64,000 nt of DNA from Vulcanimicrobiota bacterium (GCA_003135555.1 PLCF01000080.1:6619-70618), one strand, 5' to 3'; shown: positions 4,829 to 64,000, numbered from the stretch's first letter. Notes: generated from the letters alone by a model not told the origin. A program made the numbers and translations.

Positions 4829-4983
4829 ATCCGAGCTCCGCGGCCGGTGATGATGTTGAACACCAGCATCACCAGGGCAATCACCAGCAGTAAGTGGATG
4901 ATCGAGCCTCCGAAATGCAACGCGAAGCCGAGCAGCCACAGAACGAACAGGATCACGATGATCCCCCAGATGAGTCCAGCCAT
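4825..4983 (-). CDS. Small membrane protein, lmo0937/DUF5670-like (52 aa)
   Basis: MAGLIWGIIVILFVLWLLGFALHFGGSIIHLLLVIALVMLVFNIITGRGARI; SD AAAGGA upstream; absent from the ORF track. Confidence 0.8.
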   Translation of the reverse strand: MAGLIWGIIVILFVLWLLGFALHFGGSIIHLLLVIALVMLVFNIITGRGARI

Positions 4984-5128
4984 GCGCACCGTCCTTTCTG
5001 ACCCCAGGCTTGCCCCTCAACGCGCCTCTTCAATCCGCTCCTTCTTCTCACTCCACGGCGGGCGAGCGGGCGCCCGAGTGTGATCGCCATCGCGCACATC
5101 GCTGTACCGCGCGGGGAAAGCCGGTCCT

Positions 5129-5425
5129 ATGCCGCTCGCGTACACGAACCTCCGCCCCCTCCCGGCCGGCCGTGCGTTCCCGCACTGGAGCGACGTGCTG
5201 CGCGAGCGCCTGGCCGCACTGCGACGCGAGGCCGAGCGCGAGGCGCGTGCCGGGCACTCCGGCGCTGAGCCGCTAACGGAGCTCGTGGCGCGCAAGCTCG
5301 CCGCGTTTCGGGCCGAGCTCCCGGCGCTACGCCGCGATCATCGCCGGCGCAGCGCCGGCACCGACGAGTTGCTCCACGCGATCGCAGCGCTCGGCCCACC
5401 CAGCGAACGCCGCATCGCCGTTTAG
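5129..5425 (+). CDS. Hypothetical helical protein (98 aa)
   Basis: ORF converging on panE. Confidence 0.5.
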   Translation: MPLAYTNLRPLPAGRAFPHWSDVLRERLAALRREAEREARAGHSGAEPLTELVARKLAAFRAELPALRRDHRRRSAGTDELLHAIAALGPPSERRIAV

Positions 5426-6324
5426 CGTCGCGTCCCCTCGCGCGCCTTTACCAGCGCCGTGAGCGTCTCGTTGTACGGCGTCGGCACGGCGGCGCGGCGG
5501 CCGGCCGAGACGACTGCGCCGTTGATGAAGTCGACCTCGGTGGGCGCGCCCGAACGCAAGTCTTGCAGCATCGAGTTGTCCAGCTCGGCGGTTTGCTCGA
5601 CGATCGTGCGCACGTACGTCCACGGGTCGGTGAAGGGCAGCGGGATGCGCATCGCGTTGGCGACCGTCGCGGCTTCTTGGGCGAGCGAGCGTGCGATGTC
5701 GCCGGCGTGCTCGTCGCTGAGGACGACCCCGTTGGGGCGATCGAGCAGCGCCGCCACGGGATTGATCGCGGCGTTGGCGATGAGCTTGCCCCACAGATGC
5801 GGCCGGATATCGTACGCTCCGCTGGCCCGCAGCCCGGCGTCGACGAGCAGCCGCACGACCCGGTTGACCAACTCGGGCGACGCGCCCGCGCTGCCCAAGA
5901 CCGTCGTGCCGTCGCCGACGCGCCGCACATCACCCGGACCGACCGCGAGCGCGGACTCGGTGGTGGCGCCGATCAAGAGCGGGATCGTCCCGCCTAGCGA
6001 GGTCTTGATCGCCTCTTCGTTGCCCAGCCCGTTCTGCAACGAGACGATCGCCGTGGCCGGGCTCAGCTCCGAGGCGAACGGGCGCAGCGCACGCAGCGTG
6101 TCGGTCGCGCGCACGAACACGAAGAGCACGCCGACCCCGAAGAGATCGCGCGGCTCGCTGGTAATCTGTGCGTTGCGGGCCTGACCGTCGACCCGCACGC
6201 CCGACTCGCGAATGGCGTCGACGACATCCTGCTTGCGCTCGAGGAGCACGACCTCGTTGGCAGCGGCCAGCCGCTGCCCGAACAACGTCCCGAGCGCACC
6301 CGCGCCGACGATGCCTAATTTCAT
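5422..6324 (-). CDS. panE: 2-dehydropantoate 2-reductase
   Basis: GIVGAGALG, SLQNGLG, LWGKLIANAAINP, SMLQD...TEVDFING. Confidence 0.92.
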   Translation of the reverse strand: MKLGIVGAGALGTLFGQRLAAANEVVLLERKQDVVDAIRESGVRVDGQARNAQITSEPRDLFGVGVLFVFVRATDTLRALRPFASELSPATAIVSLQNGLGNEEAIKTSLGGTIPLLIGATTESALAVGPGDVRRVGDGTTVLGSAGASPELVNRVVRLLVDAGLRASGAYDIRPHLWGKLIANAAINPVAALLDRPNGVVLSDEHAGDIARSLAQEAATVANAMRIPLPFTDPWTYVRTIVEQTAELDNSMLQDLRSGAPTEVDFINGAVVSAGRRAAVPTPYNETLTALVKAREGTRR

Positions 6325-6445
6325 TCTGACGGCGCTCCGCTCACGCTGCGCGCCCCCCACGCTTTGCGTGGGGCCCCCGGGTCCGACCTCGCAACGGCGT
6401 GACGGTACGCGGACGATTCTGCTGTGCTCGGTCCATCACCATGCT
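6325..6445 (-). repeat. Intergenic repeat family, copy 1
   Basis: TGGTGATGGA...GTTGCGAGGTCGG..GGGGGCCCCACGC-loop-GCGTGGGGGGCGC...GGAGCGCCGTCAGA immediately followed by the panE ATG. Confidence 0.85.
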
Positions 6446-6463
6446 GCTGTCACCGGGGTGCTG

Positions 6464-7156
6464 TTACCATGCTGCTCTTTGGCGTTTCCGGGTCATTTGG
6501 GCGATGAGGAAGACTCCGGCGCAAAAGCCGCCGATGTGGGCGAAGTACGCGGTCCCGCCGACCGACTCCGCCGCGCGGTCGCTGATCGTTCCGAACCCGG
6601 TCACGAACTGGCTCAGCGCCCAAAGTCCGATGACCAAGAGCGCCGGGAGCCGCACGAACAGTGGGAACCAGCCCAGCGGGACGATGGTGCGAATCCGTGC
6701 GAACGGAAAGCAGACGATGTAGCCGCCCAGGATGCCGGCGATCGCACCCGACGCGCCCAGCGCCGGCACGTGGCTCCACGGGGCGACCGCGATCTCCGCG
6801 ATCCCGCCCACGATCCCGCACAGCAGGTAGTAGGCCAGGAAGCGCACGTGGCCGCAGACGTACTCGATAGCCGGACCGAACACGAACAGGTACAACATGT
6901 TGAACCCGATGTGCAGCCAGCCGCCGTGCAAGAACATCGACGTGACGATCGTGAGCGGTGGGAACGGCGGCGACGGCGGGTCGAGCGCGACGCCGTGCGT
7001 GACGTCGAACGGGATCGTGGCGAAGGCGTTGATGAAGCGGTCGGGGTCGGGTGCACTCAGCTCTTGAAAGAACACCCACACGTTGAGCGCGATGAGAGCG
7101 TAGACGACGAAGGGGACGACCGGCGGCCGGCCTTCGTCATCCCCGATCGGGATCAC
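6464..7156 (-). CDS. Rhomboid intramembrane serine protease
   Basis: SMFLHGGWLHIGFNML, GASG and AHIGGF motifs. Confidence 0.92.
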   Translation of the reverse strand: MIPIGDDEGRPPVVPFVVYALIALNVWVFFQELSAPDPDRFINAFATIPFDVTHGVALDPPSPPFPPLTIVTSMFLHGGWLHIGFNMLYLFVFGPAIEYVCGHVRFLAYYLLCGIVGGIAEIAVAPWSHVPALGASGAIAGILGGYIVCFPFARIRTIVPLGWFPLFVRLPALLVIGLWALSQFVTGFGTISDRAAESVGGTAYFAHIGGFCAGVFLIAQMTRKRQRAAW

Positions 7157-7157
7157 C

Positions 7158-8774
7158 TTAGAATTGGTACTGCAGCCCGAAGGTTGTGCGGCGCGCGTCG
7201 CGCAGCGCGTCCCGCTCGCCGCCGAAAATGGTGAGCCCGTTACCCAGCCCGTAGTTGGCGTAGAGATCGGTCGTCGGCCGGCGCGGGTCGTAGATACGGC
7301 CCTCCACACCGAGTCCGCGGCTGAGTGCCGGTGAGTACACCGCGCGCGCTCCGAGCCGCGAGTACAACACGCCGCCGCCGACTTGCAGGTGCGGAAACAC
7401 CGTCGCCATGCCGGCGAAGTTCCACGACGTGCGCGGCCCGCCGATATCGTTCGCCCCGGCGAACAAACTCGTCGCTCCCTTCGGCAGCGCGATGACGTTG
7501 ACGTCGGTCTGCGGCCCGCGGTCGCGCGTCAGCAGCGGTGAACTGTTCGTGCCGGCATGCTGCGCATCGAGCGCCGAGACGCGTATCTCCAGGGCCACGA
7601 GGTCCTTGACCAGGGCGCCGACCTTGTTCTTGACATTGCCCTGGATCGAACCCGGCGGCGGCGTTGCGCCGGGGCCGGGCGCTCCGGTACGCTGCGGGTA
7701 CGTGCCGTTCGGTAACGGCGTCCCCGCCGGAGCGGGCGTTGCGCCGCGATCGACTCCGTACACGCTGGACCGCCCGCCGAACTGAGCCAGCAGCGAATTC
7801 GCCTTCTGCGCCGCAGCGTCGACGTTGGCGACCGTGTCGCGTAGTTGCGCCTGCGTCTGGCTGTTGCCGGTCACGTTGCGCAAGTCGGCGGCGATCGACG
7901 AGAACGTTGTCGCGGTTTGCGCGATCCCTTGCGTGGTTTGCAGGATGTTCGAGCGCAGTTGCGGGTCGCCGGCGAGCGCCGCCACGTGGTCGGCGGTCCG
8001 GTTGAGATCGCGTGCCGAAGCATCGAGGGCAGCCACGATCGTATCGACGTGGCCGGTGTTGCGGTGTACGGCGCTGTCGAGCTGGGTGGTGATGTCGTTG
8101 ATATTGGCGCTGCCCTGCTGGATCGCCAGCTGCAGCGTGCTGGTCAGCGAGTCCATGCGCCGCGAAAGGTGCTGGAACGACGCGTTGGCAGTCGTGCTGA
8201 TCTCGTTGGCGTTGTTGAGCGCCGACTGGAAGGTGTTGAGCAGCGCGGGCTCGCGCCGCTCGAGCTCGGCGAGCATCGTGTCGAGGCGGCGCACCTCGCC
8301 CTGTCCTTGGTCGAGCAGGTCTTGAATCGTCGCCGGATTCGTTCCGTGCGGCTGCTGGTCGCGCGGCAGGATCTGGTGCGGCAGAATGGCCACGGCCGCG
8401 GGCGCATTGGTCGGCGCCGAGCGGCCCGACGGCTGCGGTGGCGAGAGAACCGGCACGATCTCGAGGGTCGAGTCGCCGGTCAGCGGCGCTTGAATGAGGA
8501 AGCGCGCGTTGCGCGGGACGTCGATCTTGTTGTCGATTGCGAGGTCGACCTCGACCGAGAAGTCGTCGGGGTTGAGCTTGGTGTCATCGACGACACCGAC
8601 GACCACGCCGCTCTCGTAGACGAGCGCGCCTTTGTGCAGCCCGGCCGCGGACCGGAACTGCACGCCGATCTTGTAGCGGCCTTGGGGGCCCACGTTCGCG
8701 AGCACCAGGAAGAAGCCGAACAGCCCCAGCAGCGCGGCGATGGTGAAGAGACCGACGATCGCTTGTCTATTCAT
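7158..8774 (-). CDS. mlaD: Long MlaD/MCE protein with helical stalk and C-terminal beta-rich domain
   Basis: N-terminal TM, MCE motif FRSAAGL..GA.V..SGV.VG.V; ends in FGLQYQF. Confidence 0.85.
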   Translation of the reverse strand: MNRQAIVGLFTIAALLGLFGFFLVLANVGPQGRYKIGVQFRSAAGLHKGALVYESGVVVGVVDDTKLNPDDFSVEVDLAIDNKIDVPRNARFLIQAPLTGDSTLEIVPVLSPPQPSGRSAPTNAPAAVAILPHQILPRDQQPHGTNPATIQDLLDQGQGEVRRLDTMLAELERREPALLNTFQSALNNANEISTTANASFQHLSRRMDSLTSTLQLAIQQGSANINDITTQLDSAVHRNTGHVDTIVAALDASARDLNRTADHVAALAGDPQLRSNILQTTQGIAQTATTFSSIAADLRNVTGNSQTQAQLRDTVANVDAAAQKANSLLAQFGGRSSVYGVDRGATPAPAGTPLPNGTYPQRTGAPGPGATPPPGSIQGNVKNKVGALVKDLVALEIRVSALDAQHAGTNSSPLLTRDRGPQTDVNVIALPKGATSLFAGANDIGGPRTSWNFAGMATVFPHLQVGGGVLYSRLGARAVYSPALSRGLGVEGRIYDPRRPTTDLYANYGLGNGLTIFGGERDALRDARRTTFGLQYQF

Positions 8775-8777
8775 GAT

Positions 8778-9530
8778 CTAGATCGGGATCGGCCCGACTT
8801 CGCTCCCTTGCAAGAATTGCTGCACGATCGGATTCGGTGACCGCCGAATTTCGTCGACGGTTCCGTAGGCCACAATGGCCCCTTCGAACAGCATCGCGAT
8901 ATAGTCTGCCATCATATAGATGCTCTCCAGGTCGTGCGAGATCACGACCGCGGTTCCGTTGAGGCGTTCGCGCAGCTTGACGATCGTGTCGGTCAAGACG
9001 TGGGTGATAATGGGGTCGAGCCCCGTCGTCGGCTCGTCATAGAGCACCGCTTTGGGGTTGGTGATGACGGCGCGTGCGAAGCCCGCCCGCTTGACCATCC
9101 CGCCCGAGAGTTCCGCGGGGAAGCGTTCCTCGACGTGCGCCAGGCCGACCGAGTCCAGCGTCTCGGAGACGAGCTTGCGAATCTCCTGGTCCTTCATCTT
9201 CGAGTGCTCGCGCAGCGGCAGGGCGACGTTCTCCCCGACCGTGAGCGAGTCGAACAGGGCCGAGAACTGGAACGCGAAGCCGATCGTGCGGCGCAGCTCG
9301 ATCAGATCGCGTTCGCGCATCTCGGTGATGTCGTTCTCCTGAACGAAGACCCGTCCGCTATCGGGCTTCTTGAGGCCGTTGAGGAGGCGCAGGATCGTCG
9401 ACTTGCCGGCGCCGGAGAGCCCGATGATGCAGGTGATCGCGCCCTCGACGATGTCGAGCGAGAGATTTTGCACGATGATCTTGGGACCGTAGCGGACCGA
9501 GACGTCGTCGAGGCGGGCCCAGAGTGCCAT
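8778..9530 (-). CDS. mlaF: MlaF-type ABC ATPase
   Basis: GLSGAGKS, FQFSALFDSLTV, ELSGGMVKR, YDEPTTGLDP. Confidence 0.9.
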   Translation of the reverse strand: MALWARLDDVSVRYGPKIIVQNLSLDIVEGAITCIIGLSGAGKSTILRLLNGLKKPDSGRVFVQENDITEMRERDLIELRRTIGFAFQFSALFDSLTVGENVALPLREHSKMKDQEIRKLVSETLDSVGLAHVEERFPAELSGGMVKRAGFARAVITNPKAVLYDEPTTGLDPIITHVLTDTIVKLRERLNGTAVVISHDLESIYMMADYIAMLFEGAIVAYGTVDEIRRSPNPIVQQFLQGSEVGPIPI

Positions 9531-9531
9531 G

Positions 9532-10305
9532 CTAGTGCGCGAACAAGACGTACGAGAGTGCGAAGTTGAAAATGAAGATCAGGATGATCGAGGTGACGAC
9601 CGCACCGGTCGTCGCCTTGCCGACGCCGGCCGCGCCGCCGCGCGTCCGCAGACCCTGATATGACCCGATGATCGCGATGATCACCCCGAACACCGCGGAC
9701 TTGAAGAGTCCCTTGAGGACGTCCTCGAACGGCACCGCCGACCGCGCCGAGGTGATGAACGATTCCTGTGAGATGTGCGCGTAGATACCGGCGACCCACA
9801 TCCCGCCGATGATCGAGATGATGTCGGCAAGCACGGTCAGCAAAGGCAGCATGATCAGCAGCGCTAATAGGCGCGGTACGACCAGCATGCGGGTCGGCGA
9901 GAGGCCCAGCGACTGCAGCGCCTCGATTTGCTCGGTGACAACCATCGACCCGAGCTCGGCGGCGATCGCGGCGCCCGTTCGGCCGGCCACCACAACCGCG
10001 GAGAGCATCGGACCGAGCTCGCGGGCGGCGGTGAAGGCGACCAACCCCCCGACGAGGTTGCCGACGCCGTATTGGACCGCTTGGACGGCGCTCTCGAGCG
10101 AGAACACCATCCCGGTGAAGAGCGAGGTCAGGATGACGATCGAGACGGATTGCACGCCCAGCAAATAAGCCTGATCGACCGTCGCGCCCACCCGAATCCG
10201 CAACCCCACGATGAAGCGCAGCGCGTCGGCAAAAAGCTCCGCGACGCCTCCGGCGTAGGCGAAGGCGTTGGTCGTCCCGCGCCCGGCGTCCTCGAGCACC
10301 TTCAT
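9532..10305 (-). CDS. mlaE: MlaE-type ABC permease
   Basis: RELGPML...AGRTGAAIAAELGSM.VTEQIEAL; GGAAGVGKATT. Confidence 0.92.
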   Translation of the reverse strand: MKVLEDAGRGTTNAFAYAGGVAELFADALRFIVGLRIRVGATVDQAYLLGVQSVSIVILTSLFTGMVFSLESAVQAVQYGVGNLVGGLVAFTAARELGPMLSAVVVAGRTGAAIAAELGSMVVTEQIEALQSLGLSPTRMLVVPRLLALLIMLPLLTVLADIISIIGGMWVAGIYAHISQESFITSARSAVPFEDVLKGLFKSAVFGVIIAIIGSYQGLRTRGGAAGVGKATTGAVVTSIILIFIFNFALSYVLFAH

Positions 10306-60727: not shown

Positions 60728-61113
60728 GTGTAGCGCCGGCGGCCGATGTAGACGCCCAGGCCGTAGAGCGCCATCGTGAACGGGAAGACCCAGCCCACGC
60801 TGAACGTCGGAACGCCCGCGAGCCATTGCAAGAACCCGACCGTGAGGGTGACCGCAAAGGTGCCGAACACCGCGAACAACATCCCTTCCGCGTGGATCTT
60901 GCGGAACAGCTCGTCGCCGGCACGAATGCCGCGGACGTTTTCGATTCCGGCGAACACCAGCGGGACGAGCGGTAGCAACGCGAGGATCACGTGCAGCGCG
61001 TCGGGCCGACGAGGCTCGGGCATGAAGCTGCCCACGGCCACGACGACGACGCAATAGACGCCCATCCAGAGCAAGAAGCGCAACTGGTGCGCCTTCGTAG
61101 CCGCGTTCATCAT
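60724..61113 (-). CDS. Four-TM membrane protein cotranscribed with the XRE regulator
   Basis: Hydrophobic ORF with a DEL.RKI motif; stop overlaps the HTH start (GTGA). Confidence 0.75.
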   Translation of the reverse strand: MMNAATKAHQLRFLLWMGVYCVVVVAVGSFMPEPRRPDALHVILALLPLVPLVFAGIENVRGIRAGDELFRKIHAEGMLFAVFGTFAVTLTVGFLQWLAGVPTFSVGWVFPFTMALYGLGVYIGRRRYT

Positions 61114-61120
61114 GCACCCA

Positions 61121-61160
61121 ATAGTAAAGGGGACTTGTCTATCTGTCAAGTGTCCTAGAC
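61121..61160 (-). promoter_or_regulatory. Sigma70 promoter with two overlapping operator palindromes
   Basis: TTGACA (61149-61144), 17-nt spacer, TACTAT (61126-61121); GTAAAG-N4-CTTGTC and GTCAAG-N4-CTAGAC. Confidence 0.75.
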
Positions 61161-61230
61161 ATGACTCCCTTGACGTAAAAGGTACGAAGGCCCGGCCACC
61201 CCGGGCCGATCTCGATGCCCGAACCGACGT

Positions 61231-61340
61231 ATTAAAGACCGATCCCGTCGATGAACAGCACGCCGCCGTGGGCGGCCGACCTTGAAAACTGAAGCCCTGA
61301 CAGGGAGGACCGCCCGCCAGCATGTCTACGGCGTACCGGG
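61231..61340 (-). pseudogene. DNA cytosine-5 methyltransferase remnant
   Basis: VDMLAGGPPCQGFS (motif IV), then a frameshift to GVLFID and a stop. Confidence 0.7.
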
Positions 61341-61422
61341 TGTAGCATGGACGGGTATGCAGTCCCTCACGCAAGGACTACACTCAGACATTCCAAAAGC
61401 GCATTCTGCGGTCAGATAGGGA

Positions 61423-61808
61423 GTAAAACGCACCCCGCCTGCCCGACAAGCAAAAGAGCCCGCCCCGCACTCCTAATGCGGAACGGGCTCCTCGGGAAGG
61501 GTCCTCAGATCGGCTTCGGACCGATGTCTCCCCGTAAGGGGTGTTCTACCGGCTGAACCACCGAGGACCTAACGGAACCCACACCCCAGGCTCCCCCTGA
61601 CCAGCGCTCCTTACGGAGCACCGACCCTCATAGGCGCTACTCACCCTCCTTCTCGCAGAGATAGGGATACGACCACCGCTCGGCTCCGCAGCATGAACGG
61701 TGGTCGTATCATTTGCTTCCGACGCCGATGGCGTCGATTCCCTCGGGGGTCTCCCCCGTTTTGCTCACTTCTCCACAGGGTTCCACGCGGTTCCAAAGTG
61801 CGTTTTAC
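61423..61808 (-). ncRNA. Putative ~390-nt structured RNA containing a tRNA-like domain
   Basis: Terminal pairing, nested stems, GNRA loops and G-U pairs that work only on the minus strand; no credible ORF. Confidence 0.6.
61500..61569 (-). ncRNA. tRNA-like cloverleaf with a shrunken anticodon arm
   Basis: GGTCCTCGG-TG-GTTC.AGCCGGTA.GAAC-A-CCCC.TTAC.GGGG-AGAC-ATCGG.TCCGAAG.CCGAT-CTGAGGACC. Confidence 0.7.
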
Positions 61809-61919
61809 GCTGCGAACCCTCGCCCGGTAATCCCGAACACTGCGCCACCCGCCATGTTAACGTGAAGGTCGTGGTCGGGCCTTAACACGCGCGCCGGGCC
61901 GGTGTGGTATCCTGTCGTC

Positions 61920-62078
61920 ATGGATAGGTCGGAGCCCGAGAGGCCATTGACTCGGTTCCAGAAGATCGTCGCTGCGATCGCCCGCGTCCCAAAGTCCGAG
62001 GTTGACGCGATGAACGCTGCCGAGAAAGCGAAGCCGCGAACGAAGCGCGGCCCGAAGCCCAAGACGCGGCCCGCCTAA
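61920..62078 (+). CDS. 52-aa basic protein converging on the transposase
   Basis: MDRSEPERPLTRFQKIVAAIARVPKSEVDAMNAAEKAKPRTKRGPKPKTRPA; TGGTATCCT extended -10 just upstream. Confidence 0.65.
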   Translation: MDRSEPERPLTRFQKIVAAIARVPKSEVDAMNAAEKAKPRTKRGPKPKTRPA

Positions 62079-63039
62079 CACCTCACGCGCCCAGCTTTGT
62101 TCGTCAACTCGCGCCACGTGAGCCGCCGCCCGTCCGCTCCCTTGAGCCCTTTGACGAACCGCTTTCCGTCCTTCTCGTTGCGCTCATGAAGCGGTAAATC
62201 TGTTCGCCCAGGTATCGTTCCAGGTGGAACGGGCGCGCGCAGATATACGTCCCGGCGAGCGTGCGCTTCAATACCGACCAGAAGTTTTCGATGCTGTTCG
62301 TGTGAACGTGACCCTCGACGTAGCTAATCGCGTGGTCGATGACATGGTGAACGTAACTCTGGCTTACGTCGTGATAGGAGCGCAGAGCGTCAGTGTAGAC
62401 CGTTGACCCCGGCGCAACATGTTCGACAATCCTCGGCATGAGGGTGCTGCGCCGGGTGTTCGGGATGATGAACGCGCGGACGCGACCGCCACGTTCGATC
62501 ATGCCCATGACGACAGTCCTACCAGCCTGCGGACCCGGCGACTTCCAGCCATCGGGCCGCGGTTGACGACCGGTGTTTCCGCGCTTGTTCCCAAGCTTGC
62601 CGCCGATATACGTCTCGTCCGCCTCGACCTCGCCGGAAAGACAGTCGAACGTGTCAGCCTTGAGCGAGAGGCGCAAGCGGTGCAGCATGAACCACGCGGT
62701 TTTCTGCGTGACGCCGAGCGCGCGGTGAATCTCATAGGACGAAACACCGTTGCGACATGACGTGAGCATCCACAGCGCCGGGAGCCACTTGGAAAACGAG
62801 ATCGGCGAGTCCTCAAAGACGGTCCCGACCTTGGCGGTAAACTGCCGGTCGCACTCGCGGCAGCGCCACACGTTACGGCCCTTGATCGTCACCACGTCAG
62901 CCGATCCGCACCCCATTCGGGGACAGGCCATGCCGTTCGGCCAGCGGAGTGTTACGAAGTAGTCGTGCGCTACTTGCTTGTCAGCAAAGAGCGCGACGGC
63001 TTCCAGAAGCGTGGTCGGATCGGCGGGTAGTTGGGCCAT
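62075..63039 (-). mobile_element. IS1595-family (ISXO2-like) transposase with a 1-nt deletion near 62187
   Basis: Zn ribbon CP..GC..WRC.EC, HTH (LGVTQKTAWFMLHR), VEADETYIGG, YTD, HTNSIENFW; the family-type C-terminus (ERNEKDGKRF..GRRLTWRELT) continues in another frame. Confidence 0.9.
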
Positions 63040-63081
63040 ACTCGCAGACAAGGTTGGCGGCGGATGTCGACGACCGTTTCA

Positions 63082-63211
63082 TGTGAACCTCGCGTGGCGC
63101 ATCCCAGCCATGCACCCGCGTACGCCGGGCTCGAAATATACCGAGGACGAAGCGGCGGATGCGCTCGGCCGCGTCAAGGCACTAATGAATCACCTTGCCG
63201 ACGTTATCTAA
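63082..63211 (+). pseudogene. 3' remnant of a HEPN-like gene
   Basis: AWRIPAMHPR...YTEDEAADAL..VKALMNHLA, an Rx4H motif followed by a terminal helix. Confidence 0.5.
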
Positions 63212-63260
63212 AAGTCTTGTCGGTCAGTGCCTTCCAGGTGAGCCGGCAACCGTCCGCAGT
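63204..63260 (-). pseudogene. C-terminal remnant of a second IS1595 transposase
   Basis: TADGCRLTWKALTDKTFR* aligns with GADGRRLTWRELTNK of the adjacent transposase. Confidence 0.7.
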
Positions 63261-63400
63261 TCACACCTGGCGGGGTTGCACCACGATGCCTGCTTCGGAC
63301 GCCCGGCGACGGAGGCATAGTTACTACCTGCGACATATTCCCCAACGGAACGAGCTACGGCCCAAACAGGGTGCACTAAACGAGGTGCGGGACTTCGGAT

Positions 63401-64000
63401 ATGACGGTAGTCATCATGACCCTAACAACAAGAGTTTCCGGTGAAATGGAGCTCATTGCGGTCGCGGACAGACTATTGTCCGGCGGCGGTTTCTCGATGC
63501 AGTTGGGTCCGGGATCGAAAGTCGTGCCGTTATACAATCCGAACGCCAAAGGCGGAGCAAATTGGCTACTAGGATTCGCAGGCGACACCTCATGGTTTCT
63601 GCCCATCCGCGAGGCCATCAGAGCCATTACGACCGATGACTCGTCCGGCGACGAGGTCGTCGAGGCTGCTCGGGCCGGATATGTCGCGCAACGCCGGCGA
63701 GTATTTGAGCAAACAGTACTAAGCCCATTTGGGCTCGACGTTCCGTCACTGCTTTCCAAAGGGCGTGCCATCTTTGGCGAGGACGAGTTCAATCGGCTCT
63801 GTTGCGCGCTAACAGACTTCGATTTTCGGTTCCAGCTTGTTCTGGGGGGTTGGTCCAAGGCGAAGCAGCAGACGCGCCTGGTAAGCATAGAAAATCCTGG
63901 CGTGGTGATCGACCACTTCATAGAAGGCGCGGTTGCGATTGGCGAAGGCGCAGCGTTAGCAGCTGGTCATCTTTGGGCAACATATAATCGGTACGGGAGC
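63401..64000 (+). CDS. Proteasome beta-subunit/Ntn-hydrolase-like protein (runs off the window)
   Basis: Open for 200 codons: M-T start, IAVADRLLS, SKV, LLGFAGD, LVLGGW, AVAIGEGA. Confidence 0.7.
   Translation, partial: MTVVIMTLTTRVSGEMELIAVADRLLSGGGFSMQLGPGSKVVPLYNPNAKGGANWLLGFAGDTSWFLPIREAIRAITTDDSSGDEVVEAARAGYVAQRRRVFEQTVLSPFGLDVPSLLSKGRAIFGEDEFNRLCCALTDFDFRFQLVLGGWSKAKQQTRLVSIENPGVVIDHFIEGAVAIGEGAALAAGHLWATYNRYGS

Follow-up and report, generated by a model that had tools for sequence, protein, structure and literature searches.

What is the strongly folding stretch that lies, unannotated, downstream of an IS1595-family transposase gene in a Vulcanimicrobiota bacterium? It occupies positions 61423-61808, minus strand, of the window, by which we mean the whole 64,000 nucleotides (nt) analysed (GCA_003135555.1 PLCF01000080.1:6619-70618; contig C9:6619-70618 of a 3.57 Mb genome bin in 98 contigs, with C9 ending 1,015 nt past the window). 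A preliminary description, made from the DNA alone, had presented it as a multi-hairpin element of about 390 nt with a tRNA-like domain, and had suggested an RNA linked to IS1595. We observed a strong, strand-specific fold that matches no Rfam family, as that description would have it, and that occurs independently of the transposase. Tentatively, and at somewhat below an even chance, we read it as a gene, real or silenced only of late, for a stable RNA of the minus strand, which would be cargo of a low-G+C, strain-variable island and not a part of IS1595.

Fold and architecture of the element

The minus strand of 61423-61808 folded to a minimum free energy (MFE) of -203.5 kcal/mol, while its dinucleotide shuffles averaged -159.1 kcal/mol and none of 100 was as low (z -7.22). 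The plus strand reached -167.0 kcal/mol (z -6.09 against its shuffles), and both strands thus passed the comparison that the preliminary description had proposed. The excess was also clear against a local background of 255 windows, each of 386 nt, taken across the 64 kb and folded on both strands with the energy fitted to G+C: the candidate lay 44 kcal/mol under the fit (-5.7 standard deviations, SD), and the lowest background window 28.9 kcal/mol under it. When portions were folded alone, the 5′ 201 nt gave z -5.28, the tRNA-like module together with the 3′ hairpin (122 nt) gave z -4.76, and the downstream flank 61111-61425 was ordinary (z -1.6).

The two strands differ in the kind of pairs that they form. 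In the minus-strand fold 24 of the 144 pairs are G-U, each of which is A-C on the plus strand, and A-C mismatches are absent; the mismatches in the stems amount to three 1x1, all of them G-G. The plus-strand fold has 3 G-U among 115 pairs. The fold excess and the one-sided G-U together therefore point to an RNA, or to a single strand, that is read from the minus strand. The preliminary description had drawn the same strand preference from four stems, and it holds over the entire fold, subject to two cautions of composition that are weighed in the last section. Elsewhere in the window, the widest strand energy gap of the 64 kb belongs to 8001-8400 (plus strand, -201.8 versus -143.3), with a shuffle z of just -2.87; it is probably an effect of coding-region composition.

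Seven hairpins (H1-H7), a tRNA-shaped module and a 3′ hairpin succeed each other along the element, whose length is about 320-390 nt depending on where its ends are placed (Table 1). A ladder of short helices runs from the outer 15-bp stem inward to the pairing of GAGCAAAA with UUUUGCUU. Every pairing listed in the preliminary description was recovered in the sequence, namely the outer stem with its 11 Watson-Crick, three G-U and one G-C pairs, the inner stem, the GNRA hairpins, CGACGCC-AUC-GGCGUCG, the 13-bp stem, the tRNA-like domain and the 3′ hairpin. The outer stem (61808-61794 with 61437-61423) had in addition been given the role of closing the structure, and this part did not stand: once the flanks 61360-61880 were included its pair probability fell to about 3%, because its 5′ arm prefers partners upstream, while the GAGCAAAA/UUUUGCUU stem and all that lies inward of it were kept. 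The robust unit is therefore 61448-61766. At its 3′ side, the hairpin begins 7 nt past the tRNA-shaped module and the U tract CUUUUGCUU follows directly. This has the form of an intrinsic terminator, yet a simple consensus terminator scan did not list it; the only Rfam echo of the hairpin is to Ref55, below threshold (E 4.8).

Table 1. Coordinates of the element, its parts and the neighbouring genes in the window
Feature	Position	Strand	Basis or remark
Candidate as flagged, with outer 15-bp closing stem	61423..61808	minus	MFE -203.5 kcal/mol, z -7.22
Robust core, closed by GAGCAAAA (61766-61759) / UUUUGCUU (61455-61448)	61448..61766	minus	same with or without flanks
H1, CGGGGG-AGA-CCCCCG, GAGA-type loop	61744..61758	minus	fold, helix table
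H2, CGACGCC-AUC-GGCGUCG palindrome	61720..61736	minus	draws short chance BLAST matches in other genomes
H3, 16-bp stem (13 perfect), small apical stem	61666..61710	minus	inverted repeat I6 and helix table
H4 and H5, two short hairpins	61632..61665	minus	helix table
H6, 12 bp, GUAA loop, 4 G-U pairs	61599..61626	minus	helix table
H7, 8+2 bp, 5 G-U pairs	61571..61597	minus	helix table
tRNA-like module, 70 nt	61500..61569	minus	cloverleaf energies, model R1
18-bp G+C-rich hairpin (61492-61454), then CUUUUGCUU; terminator-like	61448..61492	minus	fold, helix table
C5 cytosine methyltransferase remnant, GGPPCQGFS, about 33 aa, then out of frame	61276..61374	minus	PF00145 22.1 bits, E 1.2e-4
p58, 58-aa basic protein, divergent from the RNA	61902..62078	plus	stop overlaps transposase stop
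IS1595-family transposase gene, frameshifted near its 3′ end	62075..63051	minus	PF12762 127 bits, PF12760, NF033547 173 bits
295-aa protein, proteasome-beta-like family; first 200 codons in the window	63401..64000 (gene to 64288, 288 nt beyond)	plus	profile versus PDB

The tRNA-shaped module and known RNA families

The module opens and closes with an acceptor-like stem of 9 bp, GGUCCUCGG/CUGAGGACC, which may alternatively be read as its inner 7 bp only, U and G then taking the places of nucleotides 8 and 9. Within it a D arm (GUUC-AGCCGGUA-GAAC) comes first. At the anticodon position, where a tRNA has a 5-bp stem with a 7-nt anticodon loop, stands a stem of 4 bp capped by a loop of 4 nt (CCCC-UUAC-GGGG), and after AGAC a T arm follows (AUCGG-UCCGAAG-CCGAU). 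The D and T stems are 17 nt apart, versus 23 in class I tRNA, which therefore leaves no room for an anticodon. The nucleotides of the elbow U8, A14, G15, G18, G19, A21, C48, G53, U54, C56, A58 and C61 are, on our assignment, presumably kept; position 55 is C. The cloverleaf has an energy of -28.3 kcal/mol versus -31.7 kcal/mol for the local MFE, and with DNA parameters it is itself the MFE. A covariance model built on 61494-61630 with the cloverleaf structure (R1) scored ordinary tRNAs at 14.5-41 bits, aligning them arm for arm. ARAGORN returned no tRNA or tmRNA gene in the whole window, and RF00005 did not match the module at E<=10, even in a search of 91 nt (detection by Rfam requires at least 29 bits). 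None of the genome's 55 tRNAs is more than 66% identical to the module, which is therefore not a recent copy of a host tRNA. It has in common with the tRNA genes and pseudogenes of island borders a cloverleaf-like layout, presumably the elbow nucleotides, a terminator-like hairpin behind it and the cross-matches of R1, and it departs from tRNA by a loop of 4 nt, not 7, at the anticodon position, the 9-bp acceptor-like stem, C55 and the absence of CCA. It resembles a tRNA without being one.

The RNA as a whole belongs to no known family. Rfam 15 gave no family at the gathering threshold anywhere in the window, and a permissive search of 61000-62300 (E<=10) gave four echoes at the level of single hairpins, of 12-21 bits, with no match for tmRNA, RNase P, group I and II introns, HEARO, GOLLD, ROOL or YrlA. 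The preliminary description had found no RNase P, tmRNA, SRP or group I signature by eye, in agreement with these searches and with ARAGORN, and the match to a known Rfam family that it had named as an argument against a new RNA was not obtained. A tmRNA was rejected: ARAGORN was negative, and the tRNA-like module is internal instead of being made from the 5′ and 3′ ends.

In kind, the candidate seems nearest to GOLLD and ROOL on one side and to the tRNA-mimicking Y RNAs on the other. GOLLD and ROOL, 'ornate' RNAs of phages and prophages, are likewise large multi-helix non-coding RNAs that travel on mobile DNA and have no known protein partner. ROOL RNAs are larger than the candidate. According to one account, tRNA islands are often found close to both, the linker of GOLLD sometimes includes covalently joined tRNAs, and many GOLLD members exceed 800 nt (PMC12286853). 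The candidate likewise encloses a tRNA-shaped module in a multi-hairpin RNA, on a strain-variable island with a transposase. It differs from both in being shorter (about 320-390 nt), in giving no match to their family models (conserved 3′ domain, pseudoknots) at E<=10, and in that no phage genes were seen nearby; it differs from GOLLD also in that its embedded module is not a working tRNA.

The bacterial Y RNAs YrlA and Yrn1, which are bound by Rsr, an orthologue of Ro60, share with the candidate a tRNA-mimicking domain. According to one source, Y RNAs are 80-130 nt long and their genes adjoin rsr, in the same orientation, the domain of YrlA is permuted (T arm, closed acceptor hairpin, D arm) with the Ro-binding stem at the anticodon position, and GGUCCGA is the heptamer contacted by frog Ro60 (PMC4201824). 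The same heptamer is present at 61522-61516, in the T arm of the candidate, that is, in a hairpin loop and not in a long stem near the 5′ end; inspection of the sequence near the 5′ end found no GNCGAAN0-1G motif, which in Y RNAs is part of the Ro-binding stem. The genome's only TROVE (Rsr) gene is on contig C83 and the RNA on C9. The heptamer and the presence of Rsr in the host could be taken as a weak lead toward Rsr binding. As to being a Y RNA itself, the candidate was rejected on its normal order of acceptor, D, stub, T and acceptor, its length of about 320-390 nt, the location of rsr elsewhere and the lack of a match to RF02553. The locus of the Rsr gene (L017, G000:C83:40000-50280) was also looked at: at about 4884-10281 it includes a 557-aa Rsr/TROVE open reading frame (ORF). 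Directly upstream of this ORF, YrlA is matched below threshold (37 bits) and a tRNA in part, and about 2.3 kb further on at least 13 tandem tRNA genes run off the end of the contig.

Homologues, the transposase and the island

We observed no second copy of the RNA. It is single-copy in its own genome, where the other match is its own hairpin. By BLAST, 60 relatives gave one match of 35 nt, without further similarity on inspection, and 400 genomes of the phylum gave no homologue, with single matches of 22-51 nt in 17 of them; 18 of 19 such short matches fell on the palindrome 61720-61736, in either orientation, and a collinear second match was not seen in the 14 loci inspected. Model R1 retrieved, from 150 genomes of the family, ordinary tRNAs with a hairpin upstream and nothing else, and a second covariance model, R2, scored at best 20.5 bits in these 150 and 19.4 bits in 40 genomes of the genus. 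Distant blastn against plasmid and phage records was without a match, as was one pattern in viral contigs. A single 20-base motif, the only one applied to metagenome contigs, matched them 12 times, of which 10 were clearly ordinary tRNA genes and none was similar to the RNA beyond the motif. Finally, the 69-aa pseudo-ORF that crosses the RNA, used as a bait for miscalled genes, matched nothing.

The RNA follows the transposase stop after 270 nt, has the orientation of the transposase gene and diverges from the p58 gene. This position invites the idea that it partners the transposase or p58 as a guide, scaffold or antitoxin, and a folded RNA beside a transposase gene is also what the guide RNAs of transposons present (IS200/605 omega RNA, IscB HEARO RNA, IS110 bridge RNA). 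The association of transposase and p58 is genuine, an IS1595-like gene being located within 1.5 kb in 12 of the 20 loci of p58 relatives. Omega, HEARO and bridge RNAs are, however, conserved together with their nuclease or recombinase gene, whereas the candidate is absent from all 83 loci of transposase relatives and the IS1595 transposase is a DDE enzyme. Three of these loci are in the same genome, where three further IS1595-like genes encode proteins of 55-65% identity and DNA similarity ends at the coding region; the RNA was found at none of them by DNA comparison, R1 or R2. The other 80, with 3 kb of flank, are the best of 597 relatives drawn from one genome per species (47-60% identity) and were likewise devoid of it by blastn, nhmmer, R1 and R2. 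It was missing as well from the 20 loci of p58 relatives, 16 of which were also checked by R2, and a comparable fold was not seen in the three scanned loci of relatives of the 295-aa protein (best -3.1 SD, versus -5.5 SD for the candidate). A full-text literature search on IS1595, non-coding RNA and transposase, judged by titles and the openings of abstracts, yielded no RNA partner of IS1595. Partnership with the transposase or p58 is thus largely refuted, and we consider it highly improbable. The preliminary description had expected homologues near IS1595 transposases, which the 3 paralogous and 80 further loci do not provide; of its proposed roles, that of cargo may hold, for the island, a guide or scaffold for the transposase is not supported by these loci, and an antitoxin or other guide role found no support.

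What does recur is a set of protein genes. The transposase, p58 and a proteasome-like protein of about 280 aa form a loose module in this bacterial family, with varying order and orientation (window 61902-64000; L128-L144, L172, L173 and L175), and the RNA, which the other loci of the module do not have, is an extra that is found only here, independent of the transposase. A p58 paralogue (51% identity) is present on contig C96, 770 nt from the transposase gene of that contig, and a profile made from the two sequences retrieved relatives from 19 of the 400 other genomes searched in the phylum, each of them of the same family. These are basic proteins of 52-58 aa with a conserved VPKSE.DA ... 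KPR..RGPKPK; p58 has no word-sharing homologue in a large protein set and no Pfam family. The family of the 295-aa protein comprises 804 clusters at E<=0.001 and has no Pfam model, its profile matches the proteasome beta subunit 3h4p when compared with PDB (E 1.2e-10), and no member was found in viral contigs. At loci of its relatives, an IS1595-like gene is located within about 2.5 kb in 3 of 6, one of which (genome G190) also has a p58 relative in between. On both C9 (62075-62078) and C96 (locus L098, 3299-3302) the transposase stop overlaps the stop of the convergent small gene. None of the four IS1595-like copies of the genome displayed convincing terminal inverted repeats, and they may not be ordinary insertion sequences.

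All this is situated in an island of about 61100-64390, with 56-62% G+C versus 68% for the genome, flanked by pdxH and a gene for a membrane protein. The methyltransferase remnant immediately follows the RNA on its downstream side and is 60% identical over 30 aa to the genome's intact methylase; its motif draws 35-nt BLAST matches of 89-94% identity in several related genomes. We examined the possibility that the RNA had inserted inside a methylase gene and rejected it: a peptide upstream that resembles motif I, AGGAVFGITGRGF, gave E 1.2 by tblastn and no Pfam match. One base is missing near codon 290 of the transposase gene (62075-62190), which puts the last 36 residues (ERNEKDGKRF...) into a different frame; on C96 the copy is intact, and the frameshift could be an assembly error. 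Flank synteny is not conserved in five complete relatives, and therefore no empty site is definable.

Sequencing runs confirmed the locus and revealed a variant of it. In run X2 one contig spans 60936-64000 without a difference. In run X1 one contig spans 61101-62998 and another joins 61153 to 63027 on opposite strands, which therefore indicates a second arrangement of the island in the population, a left border of the variable segment at 61153/61154 and a position of the RNA inside it. From its sequence, this junction would join codon 5 of the transposase, in frame, to a short ORF that starts at 61112.

Such rearrangement, together with the perfect 11-bp inverted repeat at the ends of the element (GTAAAACGCAC/GTGCGTTTTAC, repeat I14), is what one would look for in an element acting as DNA, be it a miniature inverted-repeat transposable element bounded by this repeat, a recombination site or a single-strand origin. 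Folding with DNA parameters, which was good for both strands (z -6.97 and -5.21), would also be in line with it. We nevertheless hold a DNA-level element to be improbable: the stretch is single-copy and was not found in the other genomes searched, no direct repeat that could be a target-site duplication flanks its ends, the breakpoints at 61153/61154 and 63027 do not coincide with these ends, and the asymmetry between G-U and A-C is unexpected for a duplex.

Odd tRNA genes and the choice between gene and relic

The loci of p58 relatives carry tRNA genes more often than expected. A tRNA was found within 1.5 kb in 4 of 20 such loci of other genomes, against about one expected from some 55 tRNAs in 3.6 Mb, a comparison in which related genomes are not independent; the two loci of the genome under study were not found blind. 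Among 80 transposase loci from other phyla a tRNA was present in only 3. All four tRNAs (L129 2424-2497, L130 496-582, L136 1695-1769 and L145 1763-1834) look odd in the ARAGORN drawings: one labelled 'Thr' has the anticodon AGU and C33, an 'Ala' of 87 nt carries a long extra arm, and two 'Ser(GCU)', 72 and 75 nt in length, lack the long arm of bacterial serine tRNAs. The module can be read as carrying or attracting tRNA mimics, or as inserting next to tRNA genes and leaving damaged copies behind.

On C96, between the p58 paralogue and the IS1595-like gene, lies a further region of 426 nt, unrelated to the candidate (L098 3546-3971, G000:C96:32545-32970, minus strand; z -5.7). Within it, Rfam scores at 53 bits a tRNA (anticodon CUG) that has a T loop of 5 nt, GCAGA, and is rejected by ARAGORN; GGGGACA/TGTCCCC motifs are repeated in the region.

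These tRNA genes bear on the main rival of the gene reading, a relic, in which a tRNA gene and the terminator belonging to it have decayed and palindromic hairpin debris has gathered upstream of them in a decaying island. A tRNA-shaped module followed by a terminator hairpin is the ordinary layout of a tRNA gene, the island is full of broken genes (the frameshifted transposase and the 33-aa methylase remnant), and the candidate is an orphan, as relics are. Beside the odd tRNA genes of the four loci, the aberrant T loop within the C96 region would fit a history of this kind. Moreover, three components suffice for z -7.67 in the region L129 2300-2760: a tRNA, a strong terminator and, downstream of the tRNA, an inverted copy of the tRNA's 5′ half, which makes a helix of about 26 bp. 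Extreme fold scores near tRNA genes therefore need not mean a new RNA. Several features of the candidate speak against a relic. Its stems are nearly intact; neutral decay should give A-C as often as G-U, and the count is 24 to 0; the 5′ 201 nt keep their fold excess with no piece of tRNA in them; and its low identity to the host tRNAs excludes a recent copy. On balance a relic appears to us somewhat unlikely.

We thus come back to a gene, real or lately silenced, for a stable RNA. We prefer it because of the near-perfect helices, the extreme fold excess over shuffles and background, the one-sided G-U, the independent tRNA-free 5′ domain and the gene-like end. It is further favoured because the module keeps the arms and presumably the elbow nucleotides of a tRNA, because model R1 finds real tRNAs, because the contig of run X2 is identical and because the RNA lies in an island low in G+C with decaying mobile genes around it. 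It is also favoured because large RNAs of mobile elements that stand by tRNAs or contain them are known, GOLLD and ROOL among them (PMC12286853).

Several observations weigh against this reading. The minus strand is rich in G (142 G, 97 C), which bears on the G-U asymmetry, and a strand difference as large as the candidate's own, 36.5 kcal/mol or more, is also met in 8 of the 255 background windows; these are the two cautions announced above. The outer closing stem is not robust when the flanks are included, and the promoter scan gave no convincing promoter upstream of the RNA. The lack of a match to RF00005 means that the term 'tRNA-like' rests on our own reading and on model R1. No homologue that could testify to covariation or conservation was found, and the public sequencing runs that contain the stretch are three, all of them DNA runs of a peat metagenome, two possibly being its source, with no RNA run found. 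Since the neighbours are pseudogenes, the RNA may be dead too. A single sequence, for which neither relatives nor an RNA run were found, can bear limited weight.

If the gene is functional, its transcript would consist of seven short hairpins and then of a tRNA-shaped module incapable of decoding, because a 4-nt loop replaces the anticodon loop, and would presumably end at the strong hairpin and U tract. The module could serve as a handle for proteins that recognise the elbow of tRNA, such as RNase P, enzymes that modify the T loop or D loop, or a chaperone of the Ro/Rsr type. This handle might direct processing, by which the hairpin domain upstream would be released and stabilised, or it might be a decoy or scaffold. 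A bolder proposal, which we regard as doubtful and to which we give only a small chance, sees in the candidate the first example of a mobile-element RNA class not yet described, compact and 'ornate', with a covalent, anticodon-less tRNA mimic as decoy or scaffold for proteins that recognise tRNA (tRNA-cleaving defence nucleases, RNase P, modification enzymes, Rsr).

We know of no studied non-coding RNA from peat bacteria of the Eremiobacterota/Vulcanimicrobiota kind, to which the nearest relatives of the transposase point. The obvious idea, that a DDE transposase is guided by this RNA, can be put aside. Should the RNA be functional, it would join, as a small and tractable case, the short list of large structured mobile-element RNAs of unknown function, and its built-in tRNA mimic would suggest roles involving RNase P, a tRNA-modifying enzyme or Rsr as testable ones. 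Should it truly represent an undescribed class, the RNA would be one face of a wider, unstudied link between this gene module and odd tRNAs.

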